From an uncultured Chloroflexia bacterium (GTDB taxonomy: Bacteria > Chloroflexota > Anaerolineae > Anaerolineales > Anaerolineaceae), in NCBI GenBank assembly GCA_963704755.1, contig OY969938.1:2070001-2102000 (forward strand): a DNA stretch of 32,000 bases. The letters run 5' to 3'. Below, piece by piece: positions 4,585 to 30,156 of the stretch (position 1 is its first letter; each line of letters opens with the position of its first letter). The translations under genes and the position numbers were made by a program. The notes beneath the pieces are model-generated. The model was not told where the DNA came from. It searched no databases and saw only the letters and a program-made list of their open reading frames with translations.

Positions 4585-4613
4585 TTGTCGCGAAAATAAG
4601 GCTCTGGTATAAT
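4585..4613 (+). promoter_or_regulatory. putative sigma-70 promoter P2 (extended -10) of the tRNA-tuf operon
   Basis: TTGTCG (4585-4590), 17-nt spacer ending in TGg, TATAAT (4608-4613). It lies ~34 nt upstream of tRNA-Thr. Confidence 0.55.
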
Positions 4614-4646
4614 CTAGGCCGCTATTCTTGTGCCTTAACAATTCAG

Positions 4647-4719
4647 GCCGACGTAGCTCAATCGGCAGAGCAACCGCCTTGTAAGTGGTAGGTTACGGGT
4701 TCGATTCCCGTCGTCGGCT
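4647..4719 (+). tRNA. tRNA-Thr (anticodon TGT)
   Basis: Acceptor gccgacg/cgtcggc, TAGCTCAATCGGCAGAGC D-arm, anticodon loop ctTGTaa, GGTTCGATTCC T-arm; 73 nt. Confidence 0.9.
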
Positions 4720-4801
4720 CAAGTTGCCGGTTGGCAAGTGAGATTGGTCGTAAAATTATAGCGAGCGACCTCACCTGCGAGCCAGTAACGGCTCGGGGCA
4801 T

Positions 4802-4884
4802 GGGCAGTTACCCAAGTGGCCAAAGGGGGCTGACTGTAAATCAGCTGTCGAACGACTTCGGAGGTTCGAATCCTTCACTGCCCA
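4802..4884 (+). tRNA. tRNA-Tyr (anticodon GTA)
   Basis: Acceptor gggcagt/actgccc, anticodon loop ctGTAaa, long variable arm, GGTTCGAATCC T-arm; 83 nt. Confidence 0.9.
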
Positions 4885-4944
4885 CCTGGTCGTATGACCG
4901 AGAATCCCCCGATTTCGGTGGGGGGAATTTCTGGAGAACGGCAA

Positions 4945-5017
4945 GCCCTCATAGCTCAGTTGGTAGAGCGCGCCCTTGGTAAGGGCGAGGTCATGGGTCC
5001 AAATCCCATTGAGGGCT
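4945..5017 (+). tRNA. tRNA-Thr (anticodon GGT)
   Basis: Acceptor gccctca/tgagggc, TAGCTCAGTTGGTAGAGC D-arm, anticodon loop ctTGGTaa read as GGT, GGGTCCAAATCCC T-arm; 73 nt. Confidence 0.9.
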
Positions 5018-5075
5018 CTTTTTGCCGGTTGTCCCAGGACCCTTCAGTTTTATAGAGGAGCCAAGGAGTAAAAAC

Positions 5076-6278
5076 ATGGCGAAGCAAAAGTATGAGCGCA
5101 CGAAGCCGCATCTGAACGTAGGCACGATGGGTCACATCGACCATGGTAAAACGACCCTGACGGCCGCCATCACCAAATATTGCAGTTTCCTGGGCGGAGC
5201 GGAATACCGGGCATATGACCAGATCGACAATGCGCCGGAAGAAAAAGCACGCGGGATCACGATCAACATTGCCCACGTGGAATACGAAACCGCGAACCGG
5301 CACTATGCCCACGTGGACATGCCGGGTCACCGTGACTACATCAAGAACATGATCACCGGCGCGGCCCAGGTGGATGGAGCTATCCTGGTGGTAGCTGCTC
5401 CCGACGGCCCCATGCCGCAGACCCGCGAGCACGTTCTGCTGGCCTACCAGGTGGAAGTGCCGAGCATCGTGGTCTTCTTGAACAAGATCGACCAGATGGA
5501 CGATCCGGAACTGCTGGAACTGGTCGAGATGGAACTGCGCGAGATGCTCACCGAGTACAAATTCCCCGGTGATGAAATTCCGATCGTGCGCGGCAGTGCG
5601 TTGAAGGCCCTGGAGAGCACCTCCACCGACCCGAACGCTCCCGAATACGCCTGCATCAAAGAGCTGATGGAAGTAGTCGATACCTACATTCCCCAGCCGG
5701 TCCGCGAGACCGACAAGCCCTTCATGATGCCGATCGAAGACGTGTTCTCGATCAAAGGCCGCGGCACCGTGGTGACCGGCCGTGTCGATCGTGGCAAGGT
5801 CAAAGTTGGCGAACCGGTCGAGATCATCGGCTTGAAAGAAAAGACCATGAACTCGGTAGTCACCGGTGTGGAAATGTTCCACAAGCTGCTGGATGAAGGT
5901 ATGGCCGGTGATAACCTGGGCTTGCTGCTGCGCGGTATTGAACGCACCGACGTGGAGCGCGGCCAGGTAGTAGCCAAGCCCGGCAGCATCACCCCCCACC
6001 GTAACTTCATGGCCCGGGTGTACGTGTTGAAACGCGAAGAGGGTGGCCGTCACAAGCCCTTCTTCACGGGCTATCGCCCACAGTTCTACATCCGCACCAT
6101 GGATGTAACCGGCAACATCAAACTGCCCGAAGGCGTTGAAATGGTTATGCCCGGCGATAATGTCGATATGGAAGTGGATCTGATCGTACCGGTTGCGCTC
6201 GAGCAGGGCTCCAAATTCGCCATTCGCGAAGGCGGCCTGACCGTTGGCGCCGGTGTCATCACCAAGATTCTGGACTAA
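5076..6278 (+). CDS. tuf: elongation factor Tu
   Basis: [26 protein letters not shown]..; 400 aa. AAGGAG at 5064-5069 precedes the ATG at 5076. The track ORF start at 5022 is an upstream extension. Confidence 0.97.
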
Positions 6279-6313
6279 AGGAGCGTTGGCCCTGAGGGGC
6301 CACAAATGCAGGT

Positions 6314-6484
6314 ATGGCATCTAAAAAGAAAGATATTCGTCCCGTAATCACTCTGGCCTGCTCCGAATGCAAGGAACGTAATTACACGACTGAAAAGAAC
6401 CGCCGGAACGACCCAGGAAGAATGGAATTAAACAAGTACTGCCCGCGCTGCCGCAAACATACGGCTCACCGCGAGACCAAGTAA
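6314..6484 (+). CDS. rpmG: 50S ribosomal protein L33
   Basis: Hand translation gives [56 protein letters not shown] (56 aa, below the ORF-track cutoff). Two CxxC pairs and the tuf-rpmG-tRNA-Trp-secE context support the call. Confidence 0.85.
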
Positions 6485-6536
6485 GGTATAATAACAATGA
6501 GGGTCGGGGTAAACCAGCCCGGCCCTCATGTTGCAA

Positions 6537-6609
6537 AGGCCAGTAGCTCAATTGGCAGAGCGCCTGTCTCCAAAACAGGAGGTTGTGGGTTCGATTCCTG
6601 CCTGGCCTG
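6537..6609 (+). tRNA. tRNA-Trp (anticodon CCA)
   Basis: Acceptor aggccag/ctggcct, anticodon loop ctCCAaa, GGTTCGATTCC T-arm; 73 nt. Confidence 0.9.
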
Positions 6610-6692
6610 CCTCAAGCAAGGCAACGCCGTCTTCACCCGTTTATAAACTCCCGCGTGAGGCGGCGTTTTAGCCTGAAATCAAGGAGAAATGA

Positions 6693-6923
6693 GTGGCAGA
6701 GAGAACCGCGAAATCAAAGCAAGGCGAAAGACCCAAACAACCCGGTCGCATTGCCCGCTGGTGGCGTGAGACAATCGGTGAGTTGCACAAGGTCTCTTGG
6801 CCTACCGTTGAAGAAGCAAGACGATTGACCGGCATTGTCTTGATCGTCATGGCTGCGATGGCAATCGTCCTGGGCGCATTGGACCTCGGCTTCTCGTTTC
6901 TGGTTGGTCTGATACTAGGATAA
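6693..6923 (+). CDS. secE: preprotein translocase subunit SecE
   Basis: 76 aa with a GTG start 7 nt after AAGGAG (6681-6686). Contains ELHKVSWPT and one C-terminal TM helix, and lies directly upstream of nusG. Confidence 0.85.
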   Translation: MAERTAKSKQGERPKQPGRIARWWRETIGELHKVSWPTVEEARRLTGIVLIVMAAMAIVLGALDLGFSFLVGLILG

Positions 6924-6963
6924 TTGCTGCGAGTTGGCAGTTAATTAAGGAGCTATTACAAAT

Positions 6964-7638
6964 ATGGATGCGTTTGACGATTCAAAGGACAAAGAGGAAG
7001 AGATCCTCCGGCCCAAGCCCGAATCCACTCGGAGTTCTGGGTTTAGCAACGCATCCCGTGATAGCGGCCAGATTGAGGCTGAAGAAGCTCCTCATTTCGA
7101 TCCCAGTCTGGGGGATATGCGGGCCTGGTACGTGGTGCACTGCTATTCGGGTTACGAGAATAAAGTCCGCCACAACCTGGAACAGCGTATCGACAGCATG
7201 GGCATGAAAGAAAAAATCTTCGACGTGGTCATCCCTACCCAGGAAGAGATCGAGGTCAAGGATGGCAAACGCCGGACGGTTGAACGCCATGTATTCCCCG
7301 GTTACGTCCTGGTCAACATGATCATGACCGAAGAATCCTGGTACGTGGTGCGCAATACCCCCGGTGTAACCGGGTTCGTTGGCATGGGCAACCAGCCAAC
7401 CCCCCTGCGCCCGGAAGAAGTATCCCAAATCCTCCGGCGGATGGAAGCCGAAGCCCCCCATGTCAAGGTCTCTTACAAAGAGGGCGAGCGTGTACGAATT
7501 GTGGATGGGCCATTCAACGACTTCCGCGGTACCGTCGCCGAAATCGACCAGGAGCGCAACAAAGTGCGCGTCATGGTCAATTTCTTCGGTCGCGAAACCC
7601 CCGTGGAGCTGGACTTCTTGCAGGTAGAGAAGGCGTAA
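6964..7638 (+). CDS. nusG: transcription termination/antitermination factor NusG (with ~50-aa acidic N-terminal extension)
   Basis: 224 aa. NGN domain WYVVHCYSGYENKV, KOW region GERVRIVDGPFNDFRGTV, AAGGAG at 6947-6952. Confidence 0.95.
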   Translation: MDAFDDSKDKEEEILRPKPESTRSSGFSNASRDSGQIEAEEAPHFDPSLGDMRAWYVVHCYSGYENKVRHNLEQRIDSMGMKEKIFDVVIPTQEEIEVKDGKRRTVERHVFPGYVLVNMIMTEESWYVVRNTPGVTGFVGMGNQPTPLRPEEVSQILRRMEAEAPHVKVSYKEGERVRIVDGPFNDFRGTVAEIDQERNKVRVMVNFFGRETPVELDFLQVEKA

Positions 7639-7641
7639 GAG

Positions 7642-7761
7642 AGCTGATAGCTGTTAGCGCTTAGCTTATAGCTAAACCGGAGCGTCAGCTTGATAATATT
7701 AATAATAAAAGGTAAGTAGTGGCAGAAAAAGCTAAAAGCTAAGCGCTAACAGCTAAGCGCC
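7642..7761. repeat. heptamer (AGCKNWT) micro-repeats forming a 25-bp inverted repeat
   Basis: Five tandem heptamers (agctgat agctgtt agcgctt agcttat agctaaa) occupy 7642-7676. Five inverted heptamers occupy 7727-7761. 7649-7673 pairs with 7730-7754 at 24/25 positions around an AT-rich 56-nt loop. Confidence 0.7.
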
Positions 7762-7819
7762 ACATAAGCTGGGAGGGTGTCCCCCAAACCACCCGTTATC
7801 ACCACGAAGGAGTACAAAA

Positions 7820-8245
7820 GTGGCAAAAAAACTTAAAGCAGTCGTTCGTTTGCAACTCGTGGCCGGAAAGGCCAACCCGGCTCCCCCGGTAGGCCCTGCC
7901 CTGGCAGGTCACGGCATCAATATTATGGCCTTCTGCAAGGAATACAACGCCCGCACCCAGAACCGGGCCGGTGAAGTATTGCCTGCGGAAATTAGCGTTT
8001 TTTCTGATGGATCTTTCACCTTCATCCTCAAGTCGCCTCCGGCTTCCGTACTGCTCAAAAAAGCAGCCGGTGTGGAAAAAGGCTCGGCTATCCCCAACCG
8101 CACCAAGGTGGGCAAAGTCACCCGCTCCCAGGTTCGCGAGATCGCCGAGATCAAGATGAAAGATATGAACGCGGTGGATATCGAAGATGCCATGCGGCAG
8201 ATCGAAGGAACGGCCCTCAACATGGGCATCCAGGTAGTTGAGTAA
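7820..8245 (+). CDS. rplK: 50S ribosomal protein L11
   Basis: 141 aa, GTG start, GAAGGAG at 7806-7812, sequence [20 protein letters not shown]. Confidence 0.95.
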
Positions 8246-8296
8246 ACCCCGTGGGAGGGCAACTCGCTTGCCCGTCTGAACCACAAAGGAGAAACA

Positions 8297-9016
8297 ATGG
8301 CAAAGCACGGTAAGAAATATATTGCAGCCAGCGCCAAAGTGGTCCTCGACCAGAACTATTCGCCAGAAGAAGCAATGACACTGGTGAAAGAAACTTCGAC
8401 CACCAAGTTCGATGCGACTGTAGAAGTACACATGCGCACTGGGCTCGACCCGCGCCAGGCTGACCAGCAGGTCCGTGACGTGGTCGTGCTCCCCCATGGC
8501 CTGGGTAAAACGGTCAAAGTTTTGGTATTCGCCCAGGGCGAAGCTGCCGAAAAAGCAAAAGACGGTGGCGCCGATTACATCGCCGATAGCGACGAGTGGA
8601 TTACCCGCATCCAGGGCGGTTTCACCGACTTCGATGTGGCCATCGCCACCCCGGATATGATGAGCAAAGCCGGTCGCCTGGGCCGTGTCCTCGGCCCGCG
8701 TGGCTTGATGCCAAACCCCAAGGCCGGTACCGTTGTACCCGCCGAAGATTTGCCCCGGGTCATTCGCGAGGCGAAAGCCGGTCGGGTCGAGTTCCGCCTG
8801 GATAAAACCGCCAACATTCACGTGCCCATCGGTAAAGTTTCCTTCACCAGCGAGCAGCTCTACAACAACCTGGCCGCTTTGATGGAAGCCATCAAGAAAG
8901 CCAAACCGACCGGCGCCAAAGGGACCTACCTCCGCAAAATCACCGTGGCCTCTACCATGGGCCCCGGCATCAAAGTGGACGCGCTGCAAGCACAGGGCAT
9001 GGCCATCAAGGAGTAA
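8297..9016 (+). CDS. rplA: 50S ribosomal protein L1
   Basis: 239 aa. [28 protein letters not shown] is typical L1. AAGGAG lies upstream. Confidence 0.95.
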
Positions 9017-9234
9017 CGAACTAGAAATTAGTCCGTATTCCATAAGAAAGACGCCTTCACCGGTGAAAGCTGGTGCCAGACAGGCTTAATTTCCAGCCTA
9101 GGTGAAGACTTTTCCCCAACAAGTTCGCTGCAAAAGCCGGATATACCGGCCGGAAGTAGCCGAGGAAAGTCTTTGCCTGGCAAATACAAGGCAAAGACTT
9201 TTTTTATTCTAATCAGAAAGGAGGTAAATTCTCA
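9017..9234 (+). promoter_or_regulatory. rplJ (L10) leader with terminator/antiterminator alternative
   Basis: 218-nt untranslated leader. The terminator hairpin aaagtctttgcc 9166-9177 / ggcaaagacttt 9190-9201 is followed by a T-run to 9205. The segment aaagtctt (9166-9173) can pair instead with the upstream aagacttt (9105-9112). Confidence 0.5.
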
Positions 9235-9780
9235 TTGGCATATACAAAAGAGCACAAGAATGAACTGGTTGACCAATACGCTAATTGGCTGAAAGAAAGC
9301 AAAGGTGTATTCGTCCTGAGCTACAACAAAATGGCCATGAAAGACATCGATACCCTGCGGGCCAAAATCCGCGAAGCCGGTGGCGAGCTGCATGTGGTGA
9401 AAAACACCCTGATGAGCCTGGCACTGGATCAGATGAACGTCAGCAATAAAGAGGTATTCGATGGCGCCTCATTGGCCGGGTTTGCATTCAACGATATCGC
9501 TGCGATGGCAAAAGTCGTCAGCGAAGCGTCTGCCAAATCCGAGATCTTTGCGGTCAAGGGTGGTTACCTGGGCACCGAAGCCATCACCGATAAACAGGTC
9601 AAAGCATTAGCCGACCTGCCCCCGCTGCCAGTTATGCGCGCAATCCTCTTGGGCACGATTTCAGCCCCGGCAAGCAAACTGGTCCGTACACTGGCCGAAC
9701 CCGCTCGTGGCATGGCTGCCGTCATCAAAGCCTATTCCGAAAAGGATGGCTCCGCATCCGCAGAGCCGGTGGCAGCCTAG
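9235..9780 (+). CDS. rplJ: 50S ribosomal protein L10
   Basis: 181 aa, TTG start 10 nt after AGGAGG. KEHKNELVDQY..VVKNTL is typical L10. Confidence 0.92.
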   Translation: MAYTKEHKNELVDQYANWLKESKGVFVLSYNKMAMKDIDTLRAKIREAGGELHVVKNTLMSLALDQMNVSNKEVFDGASLAGFAFNDIAAMAKVVSEASAKSEIFAVKGGYLGTEAITDKQVKALADLPPLPVMRAILLGTISAPASKLVRTLAEPARGMAAVIKAYSEKDGSASAEPVAA

Positions 9781-9966
9781 CCTTGTATTTTGTTTAAACC
9801 GAATGGATCCCCATTCGGAATGAGAACAGGATTTTTATTTATTCATCCCTGGATCAGGGCAAATCGCCTGCCTTTTCTAAAAGAAAACTCGGCGCGCTGC
9901 GCTAAAGGTGAACGCCTTATCCACATGAAAATTTCTACTGAGTAATTCCTATTAGGAGAATTTGAA

Positions 9967-10344
9967 ATGGCAGATCTGGAAAAAATCGTTGATGAACTCG
10001 GCCAGCTTTCCGTATTGGAAGCCGCTGAATTGGTAAAATTGCTGGAAGAGAAGTGGGGCGTTTCCGCCGCCGCTCCTGTAGCCGCCATGGCTGCTGCGCC
10101 CGCCGCCGCCGCCGCTGAACCCGTCGAAGAGAAGACCGAGTTCGACGTCGTCCTCAAGGACGCTGGCCCCAAGAAAATCGAGACCATCAAGGTCATCCGC
10201 CAGCTCACCAGCCTGGGCCTGGTAGAAGCCAAGACCATGGCCGAGACCGCCGGTGCCAAAGTCCTGACCGGTGTTGGCAAAGAAGCCGCCAACGACGCCA
10301 AAGGCAAATTGGAAGCCGCTGGCGCAGCCGTCGAGATTGCCTAG
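9967..10344 (+). CDS. rplL: 50S ribosomal protein L7/L12
   Basis: 125 aa with an Ala/Pro-rich hinge and C-terminal [29 protein letters not shown] at 9954-9958. Confidence 0.95.
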
Positions 10345-10354
10345 TCATCAGCAA

Positions 10355-10427: not shown

Positions 10428-11150
10428 TTACATGGCCGCCTGGGGCATCTGGCGGATCACCATAACCACCTTGCCCATGATGCGCAGGCTCTGCGGATTA
10501 TCCACATAGATCGGGCCCATGGTCGGGTTGGCCGGCTGTAAGCGGATACGGTTGTTCTCTTTATAGAAATACTTCAGGGTGGTTTCATCCTTATCGTCCA
10601 GCCAGACCGCCACCATTTCGCCGTTGTTGGCCTCCTGGGCCGGCCGCATGATGATAATGTCGCCATCGTTGATCATGGCATCGATCATCGAATCGCCTTG
10701 TACTTCCAGGGCAAACAATTCGCTGGGCTTTTCCTTGACCGGCAGCAGACTGCGCGCAATTTCCACCCCGGATTCCGGGTCGAAATAGGCCAGGTCCGAA
10801 GCCGGCACCGGGATCGGCGCACTGGCGACGATCCGGCCGAGCATAGGAATTTGGATCAGCTCATCCAACCGCTGGGTCACCTGCCGGACCGCTCCGCCTA
10901 CCTTGGCGCTTGCGGTTTGCAGGGGTTTCACTACCCGAATTGAACGCGAAATGCGATTATCGCGCGAAATAAATCCCATCTTTTCGAGCTGGTTGAGATA
11001 GTAATCCACCAGCGAGGTGGATTTAACGTCGATACTGTCGCCAATTTCACGGATCGATGGAGAATAGCCATTATTGTCCTGGAACTCTGAAAGGAATGCC
11101 AGGATTTTCTTATGTCTATCGCTCAAACCTTCGTTTCGTCTCGCCATCAT
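10428..11150 (-). CDS. lexA: LexA repressor (S24 peptidase), long-linker form
   Basis: 240 aa. Winged-HTH N-terminus (ILAFL..GYSPSIREIG), catalytic GDSM and a C-terminal GKVV lysine region. Confidence 0.9.
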   Translation of the reverse strand: MMARRNEGLSDRHKKILAFLSEFQDNNGYSPSIREIGDSIDVKSTSLVDYYLNQLEKMGFISRDNRISRSIRVVKPLQTASAKVGGAVRQVTQRLDELIQIPMLGRIVASAPIPVPASDLAYFDPESGVEIARSLLPVKEKPSELFALEVQGDSMIDAMINDGDIIIMRPAQEANNGEMVAVWLDDKDETTLKYFYKENNRIRLQPANPTMGPIYVDNPQSLRIMGKVVMVIRQMPQAAM

Positions 11151-16059: not shown

Positions 16060-17040
16060 ATGAAGAAATCATCGACGCAATGTCCAAATTGTGGAGCCCA
16101 AAACGACCCGTCGGCTTTATTCTGTTCCAAATGCGGCAATAAACTGCCGCCTGCAAACGCCTCGTCCGCAAAGGCCCCCAAACCGCCGGCGAAAAACCCG
16201 GCCTGGGTCGTCCCCGTGACCATTGTCGGCCTGGTGGTCATCGCCGGCTTGATTTATACGATTATCTCGTTGTTGATGTCGGGCGGCCTTTTCGATCCAG
16301 CCAGCACACCTACCCCAACTGCCACAGCCACTCCGGCTGAGACGCCCATGCCCGTCGCCACCGCCACACCTCTACCTACGCCAACCATCGCCGGCATCGC
16401 CCCGGGCCAGGACCTGGCCGCGATCATCGCGAACGCCGCCGATGGGGACACGATCACACTTGCGCCGGGCACTTTCACGCTCGCCCAGGGCCTGGATCTC
16501 ACCAAAAGCCTGACGATCGTCGGCGCCGGCTCTGGCGCGACTACCCTCACCACCGGCCACCCGGCTGCCAGCCTGCCGGCCGTGATCGCTTTTTCAGGCT
16601 CGGGGAAACTGTCACTGCAGGGGCTGGCCCTGGCGTACCGCGGCACGGATCCCGCCGCGATTCTGGCGTTGACCTCCGGTATGTTGGACCTGGCGGACTG
16701 TACCCTCAGCGGTTCGACGTTAAGCAGCAGCAAGAAGCAACTAGGCGCAATCCAGCTCAGTAACGATGCCAGCGGTACTATTCGCGACAGCCGTATCGAG
16801 GGAAATAAAAACGCCGATACCGGCGATAAGCCGTCTAACGTCCCGGGTGGGATCATCCTCAACGGCAATGCCCAGTTGACCATTGACGGCAGCGAAATAA
16901 CCGACTCTGTATTTTGGGTTTTACATCTACGGAACGTCGAAACTCACCATCCAAAACAGCACCATCAAGAATACCTCTTACGGCGGCGATGTTTTGGAAA
17001 GTGCCAGCGCCACCGTGCAGGGCAACACTTTTCAGGGTAA
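16060..17040 (+). CDS. zinc-ribbon / TM / parallel beta-helix repeat protein, 5' fragment of a frameshifted gene
   Basis: CPNCGAQN..CSKCGN zinc ribbon, TM helix VVPVTIVGLVVIAGLIYTIISLLM, Thr/Pro linker, then beta-helix repeats up to ..IDGSEITDS (about 16908). The remaining ~45 codons look out of frame. Confidence 0.75.
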   Translation: MKKSSTQCPNCGAQNDPSALFCSKCGNKLPPANASSAKAPKPPAKNPAWVVPVTIVGLVVIAGLIYTIISLLMSGGLFDPASTPTPTATATPAETPMPVATATPLPTPTIAGIAPGQDLAAIIANAADGDTITLAPGTFTLAQGLDLTKSLTIVGAGSGATTLTTGHPAASLPAVIAFSGSGKLSLQGLALAYRGTDPAAILALTSGMLDLADCTLSGSTLSSSKKQLGAIQLSNDASGTIRDSRIEGNKNADTGDKPSNVPGGIILNGNAQLTIDGSEITDSVFWVLHLRNVETHHPKQHHQEYLLRRRCFGKCQRHRAGQHFSG

Positions 17041-17710
17041 TGTCAAAACTCACCTGGTCTTTTTTAACGATTCGAGCGGGACCGCCAGCGGCAATACCTT
17101 TAGCGGCGGCGCCGACAGTCTGGCTATCAATTTGAACGGCAACGCCCAGGTATCTCTCGAACAGAATACCATTTCAGGGGTTATGGGTGGGATTGTTTAT
17201 TCCGATACATCCTCCGGTAAGGCCGAATCGAATGAAATTAGCTCTTTCTCGAACGTAGGGATTACAGTCAACAGTAATGCTTCACCGGTCTTGGAAGGAA
17301 ATACTATTACCAACACCGCGAATTCCGCCGGAATCGGCATTTCTTATTCCGGAAACGGCGCCGGTGAAGCCCATAACAACACGCTCACCGATTTATACCT
17401 GGGCATCAGCGTCGCCGACCAGGCTGCCCCGCTTCTGGATAGCAACCAGATCTCGTCCTGTCGAAACGGCATCAGCTATAGCGACGAATCCGCCGGCACG
17501 GCCAATGCGAACACGATCCAGGCCGAGCAGACCGGTATCCTGATAAACCAACCGGCCAACCCCATCCTGACCAACAACAACATCGATGTCTTTTTTATGG
17601 CTATCCTGACCGATCCTGAAGATTGGATCAACCATCTCAGCATGACCGGCAATACCGTTCACGATGGCCCGCCCGAAATCACGATTTCCACCTTCACCCC
17701 CAGCCCGTAA
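16994..17710 (+). CDS. parallel beta-helix repeat protein, 3' fragment of the same frameshifted gene
   Basis: GN(T/I)(F/I)xGN-type PbH1 repeats run throughout. This frame is already open and repeat-like from 16901 (PTLYFGFYIYGTSKLTIQNSTIKNTSYGGDVL). The track start at 16994 is only the first TTG. Confidence 0.75.
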   Translation: MESASATVQGNTFQGNVKTHLVFFNDSSGTASGNTFSGGADSLAINLNGNAQVSLEQNTISGVMGGIVYSDTSSGKAESNEISSFSNVGITVNSNASPVLEGNTITNTANSAGIGISYSGNGAGEAHNNTLTDLYLGISVADQAAPLLDSNQISSCRNGISYSDESAGTANANTIQAEQTGILINQPANPILTNNNIDVFFMAILTDPEDWINHLSMTGNTVHDGPPEITISTFTPSP

Positions 17711-17721
17711 AGCGCTGGATC

Positions 17722-17921
17722 GAAGAATTAACCACCGAAGCACAGAGATCACAGAGAAAAGAAAGAGAAGAAATTTGTTGACTACTCAGCTACCGAAAAA
17801 AAAACACCCCTCATTTCTGAACTAGCCTGAGTAGTAACGAAATTTGTGGTTAAAAAAACGATAACCCAAAGCAAATCGGCCCGGTCCCTCGCAGCCCTCG
17901 GCCGAGGCCGCTCTTCAACGC
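17722..17921. repeat. 3'-flank repeat element, copy 1 (CACRGAG 9-mers ... TCGGCCCGGTC ... CGGCCGAGGCCGCTCTTCAACGC), interrupted by a MITE
   Basis: Aligns by eye along its whole length with 29803-29922 once 17778-17846 is removed. Confidence 0.55.
17778..17838. mobile_element. MITE-like element, short copy C (~60 bp) with 8-9 bp target duplication
   Basis: Ends ttgactactcag / ctgagtagtaac are inverted. Direct repeats gaaatttgt flank it at 17770-17778 and 17839-17847. The paralogous site near 29840 is uninterrupted. Confidence 0.5.
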
Positions 17922-18058
17922 TCATCAAACTGTATGTCGCGGGGCAAAAATGACCTGGCCTTGTTTATTGCTCCGCCAATGCTCCAGCCTGCCGGCGCTT
18001 TCTGCCTCCTCTTAACCTCCCCAAAAATCCAAAGTGCAGATTTCAGGGGAGGAATTAA

Positions 18059-18162
18059 GCCTTGTTGCCTCATTGCCTTGTTGCCTCATTGCCTTGTTGC
18101 CTCATTGCCTTGTTGCCTCATTGCCTTGTCGCCTTGTTGCCTCGTCGCCTTGTTGCCTCGTC
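18059..18162. repeat. tandem repeat, 16-bp unit (two GCCTYRTY octamers), about 6.5 copies
   Basis: gccttgttgcctcatt occurs four times perfectly (18059-18122), followed by gccttgtc and gccttgttgcctcgtc twice. It lies immediately 3' of the lipoprotein gene. Confidence 0.85.
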
Positions 18163-18172
18163 CCTTCCCCCT

Positions 18173-18763
18173 CTAATTCGGTACGGCCTTCTGGTCGCCA
18201 ATCACGATCGTATCGAGAATCGTATCTTCTCCCCGGCAAAAGACCCCGGCGGTGTAGCCAAAAGTGTACATTTTTCCGCGGAAGAAGGCAAAAGTGACCG
18301 TTCCATAATCTTTGGAATTACCCAGGCCCAGTTTGGCAGTTAACTCATTCACGCCATATTTCATCTCGGTATTCTTGGATAAAATCGACAAACCCTCGGT
18401 GTTCTGCGCCTGAACATAATTATCCGCGGCTTCATCCAGGGTTTGCGCGGACTGGTCACCGATAATGATGAACGTCTGGTGGCCAACGGTGATCAAATCG
18501 CTGCCGTCCGCCTGGTTCTGCGCTTTAATAGAGCACACGCTGTCGGCCTGGTCATATTCCACTGGGTAGCTAAACCTTAAAGGGTAAGTCGGGTCGGTAT
18601 ACGTTTTAACTGCCTCTGGCGGGGTCGCAGTTGCTGCCTCGGTGGCGGTCGCGCAGCTACTGCCGGCCGGGCAGGCCGTATCCTTCTGCGGGTTGTTGCC
18701 GCCGGTTGCGGTACACGCGCTCAGCACAAACATGCCCAGCATGATCCACACAAACTTTTTCAT
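18173..18763 (-). CDS. lipoprotein (hypothetical)
   Basis: MKKFVWIMLGMFVLSAC carries a lipobox LSAC, and GAAGGAG lies 7 nt upstream. 196 aa. The longer track ORF (to 18985) reads through the DnaA-box array and is rejected. Confidence 0.75.
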   Translation of the reverse strand: MKKFVWIMLGMFVLSACTATGGNNPQKDTACPAGSSCATATEAATATPPEAVKTYTDPTYPLRFSYPVEYDQADSVCSIKAQNQADGSDLITVGHQTFIIIGDQSAQTLDEAADNYVQAQNTEGLSILSKNTEMKYGVNELTAKLGLGNSKDYGTVTFAFFRGKMYTFGYTAGVFCRGEDTILDTIVIGDQKAVPN

Positions 18764-18819
18764 TAAGGCTCCTTCTTTTTCATTCGGGATCGAACGGGAA
18801 ATCGGCGTTTTCCTCATCG

Positions 18820-18905
18820 TTGTCCACAGGGTTTTCACAGTTATCCACAGAATTTTCGTGGTTATCCACAGGGTTATCGATGGACTATCCACAGAATTGT
18901 CCACA
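18820..18905 (+). promoter_or_regulatory. phased array of DnaA boxes
   Basis: ttgtccaca 18820, ttatccaca 18841, ttatccaca 18862, ctatccaca 18885, ttgtccaca 18897. All have the same orientation. Degenerate boxes lie at 18831 and 18873. Confidence 0.6.
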
Positions 18906-19013
18906 TCCATAACGAACAGAATCTTACCCTTACTGCTCCAAATTGCAAAGATAATCACGCGATGTATACAGGGCAATCGCATCATGCCAATTTAGTCCCA
19001 ACAGAGAAATAAT

Positions 19014-19058
19014 TTTGAGTGTTATTGTGGGGCGTAGCCCCACAATAACACTCAAAAA
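19014..19058. repeat. 21-bp perfect hairpin (loop GTA)
   Basis: ttttgagtgttattgtggggc 19014-19034 / gccccacaataacactcaaaa 19038-19058. Confidence 0.6.
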
Positions 19059-19110
19059 ACCATTCTTTGGGGAATTGCCCTCAAAAAGCTGGCAGGCTGC
19101 AATCGCCCTG

Positions 19111-19157
19111 GCTATGTATAAAAAGAGGCGGTGAAACCGCCTCTTTTTATACATAGC
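19111..19157. repeat. 22-bp palindromic hairpin, second member of the GCTATRTATAAAAAGAGGCG family
   Basis: gctatgtataaaaagaggcggt / accgcctctttttatacatagc with loop gaa. Its arms resemble those of 13447-13501. Confidence 0.6.
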
Positions 19158-19167
19158 GAATAAAGAG

Positions 19168-19194
19168 CACAACCCCGGCTGGGCCGGGGTTGTG
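19168..19194 (-). terminator. terminator of the oxidoreductase operon
   Basis: cacaaccccggc / gccggggttgtg, 12-bp stem. The minus strand then reads ctctttatt. It lies 47 nt after the gamma-subunit stop. Confidence 0.55.
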
Positions 19195-19240
19195 ACCATC
19201 TGCTGCTCCCTGAGTAAAACAGCAGGCATTAATCGATTTT

Positions 19241-19786
19241 TCAAACCTTTTCGGCTAAAAAGCGGGCCCCTTCGTGCAGCGCCTGGTAGTTCTTGGGCAG
19301 CAAGCGATGGTGCCGCTCGGGCAGGTGTTCTTTGAGCGCCTTCTCGACTACCTCGATCGGCAGGATCGGCAGGTTGGCCAGGAAAGCTCCCAGCATCACC
19401 ATATTCGTCAGGCGCTTATCGCCGATCGTCTCAGCCAGCTCGTTGCCCGGCACCAGGGCCGTGTGGATGTCCTTACGCTCGACCGCCCGGTCGATGATCG
19501 ACGAATTGACGATCAAATAGCCGCCTTCGCGCACCAGCGGCTCGTATTTGTCCAGCGAAGGCCGGTTGAACGCCAGCACCGCACGCGGATTACGCACCAG
19601 TGGCGCCCCAATCTCCTCATCCGAAATGATGACCGTGCAGTTGGCCGTGCCGCCGCGCATTTCCGGGCCATACGAAGGGATCCAGGTCACTTCCAGGCCA
19701 AAGTCCATGGCCGCATAGGCCAGCACCTGGCCGGCAAACAGTACGCCCTGGCCGCCAAAACCGGCAATGACAATTTCAGTCTGCAT
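19241..19786 (-). CDS. 2-oxoacid:ferredoxin oxidoreductase, gamma subunit
   Basis: 181 aa. [28 protein letters not shown] is typical of the gamma subunit. Confidence 0.9.
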
Positions 19787-22444: not shown

Positions 22445-22720
22445 GACACCGAAAAACTGAAAAACTGCAACACCGAATCACCACCACACTCCCACACCTG
22501 ACACCCGACACATGGCACCTGACACCGAAAAACCGAAACACCGAATCACCAAATCACCACCACACTCCCACACCTGACACCCGACACATGACACCTGACA
22601 CCGAAAAACCGAAACACCGAATCACTGAATCACCACCACACTCCCACACCTGACACCCGACACATGACCCCTGACACCGAAAAACCGAAACACCAAATCA
22701 CCAAATCACTACATCACTTC
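22445..22720. repeat. 76-bp tandem repeat array, three full units plus partial units at both ends
   Basis: Units start at 22479, 22555 and 22631 (caccaccacactcccacacctgacacccgacacatg..) and differ at only a few positions. The plus strand is about 80% C+A. Confidence 0.9.
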
Positions 22721-29802: not shown

Positions 29803-29922
29803 AGGATTAAACCACGGAGGCACGGAGTGCACGGAGGAAAGAAATTACTTTAAAAAAGATGGCCTAAAGCAGATCGGCACGGTCTCTCCCTCCATTCCGT
29901 CGGCCGAGGCCGCTCTTCAACG
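29803..29922. repeat. 3'-flank repeat element, copy 2 (uninterrupted)
   Basis: aggattaaaccacggaggcacggagtgcacggaggaaagaaatt..agatcggcacggtctc..cggccgaggccgctcttcaacgc is collinear with 17722-17921. Confidence 0.55.
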
Positions 29923-30156
29923 CCGGTCAGGAATATTCACCGCTGAGACGCAGACCATGGCACCGCCCGAAAGGGTGTGTGGATCGCAGAGAAGATTTCT
30001 TAAAAGGGCCTCGTCGTAGGGTGCGTTTGAGGGCTGACTTTCCTGATGGCGGCGGATCACCAGCCCATTTGCCCACATCGGCGTGCCCGAAACGCACCGA
30101 TATGACGCTGTTCTTAACAAGCACTAAGGATAGGAAAGGGGGCTTGGAAAAAGCGT

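Follow-up and report, generated by a model that had tools for sequence, protein, structure and literature searches.

In Bacillus and E. coli, clusters of DnaA boxes that lie outside the replication origin are known to regulate the timing of replication as well as the genes next to them, while we know of no information on, and no characterised example of, such clusters in Chloroflexota. In B. subtilis, six clusters outside oriC bind DnaA stably, regulate sda, ywlC and yydA and jointly restrain initiation, and in other Bacillus species such clusters are found upstream of different genes (Okumura et al. 2012, PMC3245932). The array described here lies in a stretch of 32,000 nucleotides (the window), a piece of housekeeping chromosome from a Bellilinea-like member of the Anaerolineae (Chloroflexota). 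The closest relatives are Bellilinea-like Anaerolineae as well, with a porG identity of at most 80%.

The first-pass annotation of this DNA had listed five 9-mers in a single orientation, and a mismatch search of the window returned each of them at the position given there on the + strand between 18820 and 18905, two being perfect and three carrying one mismatch to TTATCCACA (Table 1). The start-to-start spacing of these strong boxes is 21, 21, 23 and 12 bp, and the + strand over the same interval reads TTGTCCACA-gg-GTTTTCACA-g-TTATCCACA-gaattttcgtgg-TTATCCACA-ggg-TTATCGATG-ga-CTATCCACA-gaa-TTGTCCACA. The degenerate boxes said to be interleaved with them exist, one at 18831 as described, and the other, listed at 18873, fits best at 18874. 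Strong and weak sites together number about nine, with 10-12 bp between successive starts, over 98 bp (18808-18905). By its spacing, this ~11-bp register is that of DnaA-oligomerisation arrays. Tandem Repeats Finder assigns 18819-18898 a period of 21 bp with 77% matches; direct repeats of about 17-22 bp, as in iteron-type plasmid and phage origins, are thus present, and several near-consensus boxes are clustered in non-coding DNA by a gene start, as in non-origin DnaA-box clusters.

Table 1. Sites of the array and features of its surroundings (positions in the window; strand given as +, - or. for none).
Feature	Position	Strand	Remarks
Outlying box TGATCCACA	18742..18750	+	1 mismatch; within signal-peptide codons of lipoprotein gene
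Weak DnaA box TTTTCCTCA	18808..18816	+	2 mismatches; 12 bp ahead of first strong box
DnaA box TTGTCCACA	18820..18828	+	1 mismatch
Weak interleaved box GTTTTCACA	18831..18839	+	3 mismatches, read directly
Perfect DnaA box TTATCCACA	18841..18849	+	mismatch search
Weakest site	18852	+	matches 3/9 (6 mismatches), essentially a placeholder
Perfect DnaA box TTATCCACA	18862..18870	+	mismatch search
Weak interleaved box TTATCGATG	18874..18882	+	3 mismatches, read directly
DnaA box CTATCCACA	18885..18893	+	1 mismatch; opens close pair at 12-bp spacing
DnaA box TTGTCCACA	18897..18905	+	1 mismatch; closes close pair
ORFan lipoprotein gene, 196 aa, lipobox MKKFVWIMLGMFVLSAC	18173..18763	-	canonical lipobox
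Shine-Dalgarno AAGGAG	18769..18774	-	5 nt ahead of ATG 18763; favours short start
Moderately AT-rich spacer	18906..19012	.	60% AT; ordinary for intergenic DNA of the window
Weak candidate promoter TTGCAA-16 nt-TAAGAT	18921..18948	-	8/12, read directly
Perfect hairpin, 21-bp arm, T-run	19013..19057	-	terminator-like, bidirectional
Perfect hairpin, 22-bp arm	19111..19157	.	A/T runs on its flanks
GC-rich hairpin, 12-bp arm	19168..19194	-	terminator-like, directly 3' of porG
porG, gamma subunit of 2-oxoacid:ferredoxin oxidoreductase	19241..19786	-	final gene of por operon

The array is real and non-random. The window holds 17 boxes with at most one mismatch, against 4.5 +/- 2.4 in dinucleotide shuffles, and the array packs five same-strand boxes into 100 bp, a count that reached two at most in 200 first-order Markov simulations and was one in 195 of these. 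The density is thus far beyond chance, as had been argued from the two perfect boxes, but part of the multiplicity stems from tandem duplication: the boxes are partly copies of one 21-bp unit and therefore do not represent five independent events. When the three in-phase units were compared, identities amounted to 25/27 in the boxes (93%) and 22/36 in the spacers (61%; Fisher p = 0.007, the pairs not being independent). Since the boxes are better kept than the spacers, they are not mere passengers of a slipped repeat. Elsewhere in the window, perfect TTATCCACA boxes are found on the + strand at 9917-9925 and 10498-10506, one in the L10-L7/L12 spacer and the other near the lexA 3' end, and outside the array the 32 kb contain 12 boxes, a density ~1.4 times as high as in the loci of the relatives.

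The genes of the window are arranged in the order tRNAs, tuf, nusG, L10, L7/L12, lexA, subtilase, lysS, greA, two beta-helix ORFs, lipoprotein gene, array, porGBAD, moaA and a radical-SAM gene, so that the neighbours of the array are the lipoprotein, the beta-helix proteins and the por operon. The description of the gap in the first-pass annotation holds throughout: it measures 477 bp (18764-19240, between porG and the lipoprotein gene), contains three long palindromes, all of them perfect, and places the array 57-142 bp upstream of the lipoprotein start (ATG 18763, minus strand), and the adjacent stretch 18906-19013 is relatively AT-rich (60%, compared with a window mean of 43.6%). Read from porG, the order is three hairpins, the AT-rich stretch, the array, AAGGAG and the ATG. 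Two of the three hairpins are terminator-like on the por strand. With their 3-nt loops, the three form an unusually heavy terminator stack within 180 bp 3' of porG, no part of which is conserved in the relatives. A search of Rfam with the array returned nothing, the only sub-threshold hairpin look-alikes lying on the terminators.

Apart from the 270-aa call of the genome itself, the lipoprotein has no homologue among 5.8 billion proteins, nor does it match any family. In the public annotation this gene encodes 270 aa from a start at 18985 and runs through the array. Given the strong Shine-Dalgarno sequence ahead of ATG 18763 and the need for an N-terminal signal peptide, the 270-aa extension is taken to be an annotation artefact, and these features indicate that the real product is the 196-aa lipoprotein. 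The array thereby flags an annotation error, an ORF having been called through its boxes. A promoter scan of the lipoprotein strand gave nothing at a threshold of 9/12. If the weaker candidate in Table 1 were used, the array would be situated at about +9 to +106, from which we can only infer a roadblock geometry.

Several other elements were seen in the same part of the chromosome. An 8/16-bp unit, GCCTTGTTGCCTCATT, is tandemly repeated about 6 times with 95% match at 18059-18161, 12 bp past the lipoprotein stop codon, where this gene and the beta-helix genes converge. Between porD and moaA, which diverge, lies a 76-bp tandem repeat of 3.5 copies (22445-22709; 93% match; C/A-rich, with ACACC/ACCGAA sub-repeats), and among all 50- and 100-bp windows of the 32 kb the AT content is highest in those that begin at its downstream end, at 22703-22718. 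A non-coding element of ~75 nt occurs twice, at 17853-17925 and 29858-29925, with about 76% identity and an identical 24-nt core, TCGGCCGAGGCCGCTCTTCAACGC; both copies are intergenic and downstream of + strand genes. Finally, a zinc-ribbon/TM/beta-helix (NosD-like) protein at 16060-17710 (+) is distributed over two ORFs that overlap, 16060-17040 and 16994-17710, a split that could be due to a frameshift, a pseudogene or a sequencing error.

To place the locus in its lineage, we compared it with the corresponding loci of 80 related genomes. The por...greA-lysS backbone is conserved, greA following porG in 17 of the 80 loci and lysS being kept as well in 16, and the porG-greA gap varies from 0.3 to 3.5 kb and carries unrelated genes from genome to genome. 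The 3.4 kb of the window that carry the array (15.85-19.24 kb) are without DNA homology in any relative. No cluster of at least three boxes was found in 1.23 Mb around porG from the 80 genomes, and none has a box cluster within 10 kb of porG. The array and its carrier segment are lineage-specific, and the location of the array, absent from 80 relatives on a segment that is unique, is species-specific in the way noted for Bacillus. Since the array sits in a lineage-specific insertion, it is very unlikely to be an essential origin.

The first-pass annotation had offered two readings, one of which was an oriC-type site. According to this explanation the array would be the chromosomal oriC, or a second or relocated origin, at which DnaA oligomerises and opens 18906-19012. 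Its box architecture and orientation are indeed origin-like, five boxes with at most one mismatch are clustered in 86 bp as expected of an oriC, the AT-richer flank lies on the expected 3' side, and 21/120 among the listed metagenome arrays of the same pattern adjoin dnaA. Moreover, clusters are so rare in the relatives (none in the 1.23 Mb) that any cluster has a non-trivial prior of being an origin. However, four independent lines of evidence speak against it. The caveat that dnaA and dnaN are missing from the window was borne out over the full 32 kb, which means within 13-19 kb of the array, and neither gene was found in the 80 relatives' loci by tblastn with E. coli queries, which detected 21 and 20 loci, respectively, in the metagenome set and of which the dnaN query missed at least one divergent dnaN (L188). 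All 80 relatives furthermore lack the array even though the flanks are kept, and with an origin at this site the por operon to its right would be head-on to replication.

Strand asymmetry was assessed by the strand component b, for which the third-position GC skew of + and - strand genes was compared such that codon bias is separated from strand bias. The values were -0.123 +/- 0.035 to the left of the array and -0.111 +/- 0.027 to its right, an independent automatic ORF set gave -0.129 and -0.102, and the raw skew was negative on both sides. Hence, there is no reversal of strand asymmetry across the array, whereas an origin predicts opposite signs of b; the predicted value of about +0.12 is roughly 8 SE from that observed. 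Values of |b| in the relatives lie at about 0.05-0.2 and take both signs relative to porG, which shows the asymmetry to be a genuine feature of the clade. By the same measure the + strand is C-rich across the whole window. Even so, it carries all of the tRNA, tuf, nusG and L10-L7/L12 genes (4600-10350); should the leading strand be the G-rich one, these genes would be placed contrary to the usual preference for the leading strand.

The 60% AT of the flank corresponds to only the 98th percentile of 100-bp windows, many intergenic stretches of the window are AT-richer, and no outstanding AT-rich unwinding element was seen beside the array. In favour of an origin, the AT excess of the 60-bp flank (+0.16) is nearer to that of dnaA-adjacent arrays (+0.17) than to that of the remaining arrays (+0.02). 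The BUS rule describes a box, a spacer of at most 16 nt and at least three DnaA-trios (PMC8287927). At this locus the first (NTN)x3 run begins 24 nt 3' of the last box and none lies within 16 nt, in a test of low power that only 5/16 dnaA/dnaN-linked control arrays pass. The context of the array is most likely a non-origin one, and we regard its being oriC as extremely improbable. There is a slim chance that the array is instead a recently evolved, dnaA-distal replication-control element, either a young second or relocated origin, too recent to have reshaped the strand skew, or a datA-like site that actively alters the DnaA nucleotide state; if true, no element of either sort would have been described in Chloroflexota before.

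In order to see where else this architecture occurs, metagenomes were scanned for three boxes at exact 21-bp phasing, which yielded at least 120 loci; the same pattern was present in 70 viral contigs (IMG/VR; loci L201-L270). The contexts of the listed arrays fall into four groups. Arrays of the first lie a few hundred bp from dnaA and dnaN in proteobacterial-type origins and have offsets of -12, 0, 21, 42 and 54, to which the offsets in the window (-12, 0, 21, 42, 65 and 77) are close. The second is a recurrent array within mnmE (trmE/thdF), beside mnmG, rsmG, jag and yidC on Clostridia-like contigs. The third comprises arrays within or adjoining phage replication-type genes and the fourth coding VDN-type repeats. 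Among the listed loci with at least 3 kb on both sides, dnaA or dnaN was found in 5/14 and the other 9/14 lie away from both genes; phased triple-box arrays away from dnaA/dnaN are common among the matches listed.

The spacers of 124 distinct metagenomic arrays share a consensus with G at position 1, T-rich positions 3-5 and then A and G ahead of the following box, and both GGGTTTTCACAG and GAATTTTCGTGG, the spacers of the window, conform to it. These arrays and that of the window also have AG-TTATCCACA-G as their extended context. With this context and the ~11-bp register, the array is convincing as a standard DnaA-assembly module, of a kind that serves origins and other sites alike. The array embedded in the mnmE/trmE coding sequence is near-identical in a series of gut and Clostridia-like contigs (L083, L089, L102, L105, L111, L134, L144, L145, L155, L157, L158, L161, L181, L185 and L196; similar in L190), where it encodes ...LDNYVDKLDNYVDK... 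and where dnaA is 4.5 kb away in some; it looks like a coding counterpart of the B. subtilis thdF-jag cluster. In L084 and L146 phased arrays lie inside phage replication-type ORFs with peptide repeats such as VDNFSTP. The pattern in the 70 viral contigs suggests that DnaA-dependent phage origins may be widespread.

Three further explanations have to be weighed. The array could be a neutral tandem repeat, in which a box-like word was amplified by 21-bp slippage and has no selected function, any DnaA binding being incidental. The 21-bp repeat with its 77% matches, the lineage-specific and unconserved segment and the further short tandem repeats nearby (18059-18161 and 22445-22709) agree with this explanation. 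We nevertheless consider it unlikely, as the boxes are conserved so much better than the spacers, the last two boxes, at 23- and 12-bp spacing, are not simple 21-bp copies, and the bases around the boxes agree with the extended consensus that functional-looking arrays share. The sites might also belong to another factor, such as an OmpR/PhoB-type direct-repeat regulator with its about 10.5/21-bp phasing, or form a motif that acts at the RNA level. TCCACAG returns as a core every 21 bp, TTTCACAG/TTTCGTGG half-sites lying in between, the array is immediately upstream of a gene start, and each repeat reads UGUGGAUAA, with GGA in the leader, as an RNA-level motif might. Against this stand two 9-mers that match the DnaA consensus perfectly and three that match it at 8/9 positions, in a context equal to that of arrays adjoining dnaA, as well as the lack of an Rfam family for the array and of an adjacent regulator gene, which makes another factor distinctly unlikely.

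DnaA-box arrays or 21-bp iterons are frequent in the replication modules of phages or plasmids, and the array could accordingly be the relic, or the active form, of a mobile-element origin left in a variable spot of the chromosome. The porG-greA gap is such a variable insertion spot, the same phased pattern is found in the viral contigs, and at metagenome loci L084, L088, L093 and L146 it lies in or beside phage replication-type genes. On the other hand, no integrase, rep, phage or plasmid gene was detected in the segment or the window (including PHROGs and NCBIfam searches of the neighbours), the 477-bp gap has no match to plasmid or phage records (BLAST), no att-like direct repeats flank the 3.4-kb unique segment, and the GC content is normal. 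A mobile-element origin is therefore highly improbable.

The other reading of the first-pass annotation, a DnaA-titrating or regulatory site, remains after the oriC tests and matches the behaviour of known clusters, and it is one that we infer. We conclude that the array is probably a non-origin DnaA-box cluster that regulates the downstream gene, acts as a sink for DnaA, or both, a reading reached by elimination and from the analogous clusters of B. subtilis. It is predicted that DnaA binds the array, that an oligomer forms and that transcription or initiation is affected. The strong boxes, which lie on one face of the helix at a spacing of 21 bp (two turns), would nucleate DnaA, and ATP-DnaA would then fill the weak sites to give an uninterrupted oligomer with up to about nine protomers. 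Since the cluster lies between the por terminators and the start codon, such an oligomer would overlap the promoter or the 5' leader of the lipoprotein gene, whose expression might in this way be coupled to the level and nucleotide state of DnaA. At the same time the cluster could double as a local sink that holds several DnaA molecules. The candidate regulated gene is an ORFan. The array does not locate the origin and opens no new question; it does show the same phased architecture arising lineage-specifically in an Anaerolineae chromosome, and at about 100 bp it may offer a convenient, compact substrate for DnaA oligomerisation in Chloroflexota.

Compared with known systems, the array resembles the oligomerisation regions of oriC, as represented by the R, I, tau and C sites of E. 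coli, in that weak sites lie between strong boxes spaced 21 bp apart, but unlike oriC regions it is not linked to dnaA/dnaN, shows no reversal of skew, has no conserved position and lacks a marked unwinding element. The phage and plasmid replication modules likewise have 21-bp direct repeats that carry DnaA boxes, whereas the array has neither nearby rep or mobile genes nor similarity to plasmid or phage records. E. coli datA, which lowers the initiation potential, is also a non-origin cluster of about five DnaA boxes. It needs an IHF site among boxes that are more widely spaced, whereas those of the array are packed into 86 bp and the IHF consensus is absent: neither WATCAANNNNTTR nor a relaxed match was found in 18700-19250, the consensus being that of E. 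coli, which may not apply to Chloroflexota. The locus contains only one GATC, a motif that may not apply in this phylum either. The arrays upstream of dnaA at metagenome loci L097, L118, L124, L179 and L194 share with the array its single orientation, the 12-bp close pair at the end and the AG-TTATCCACA-G context. The clusters of Bacillus are mostly origin-proximal. The array is from another phylum (Chloroflexota, Anaerolineae), has boxes that are all co-oriented and strictly phased, and is predicted to bind DnaA. Like them, however, it consists of dense intergenic consensus boxes outside oriC, upstream of a gene and at a species-specific location, and the dual role expected of such clusters, regulation of the neighbouring gene and a sink for DnaA, is the one predicted for the array.
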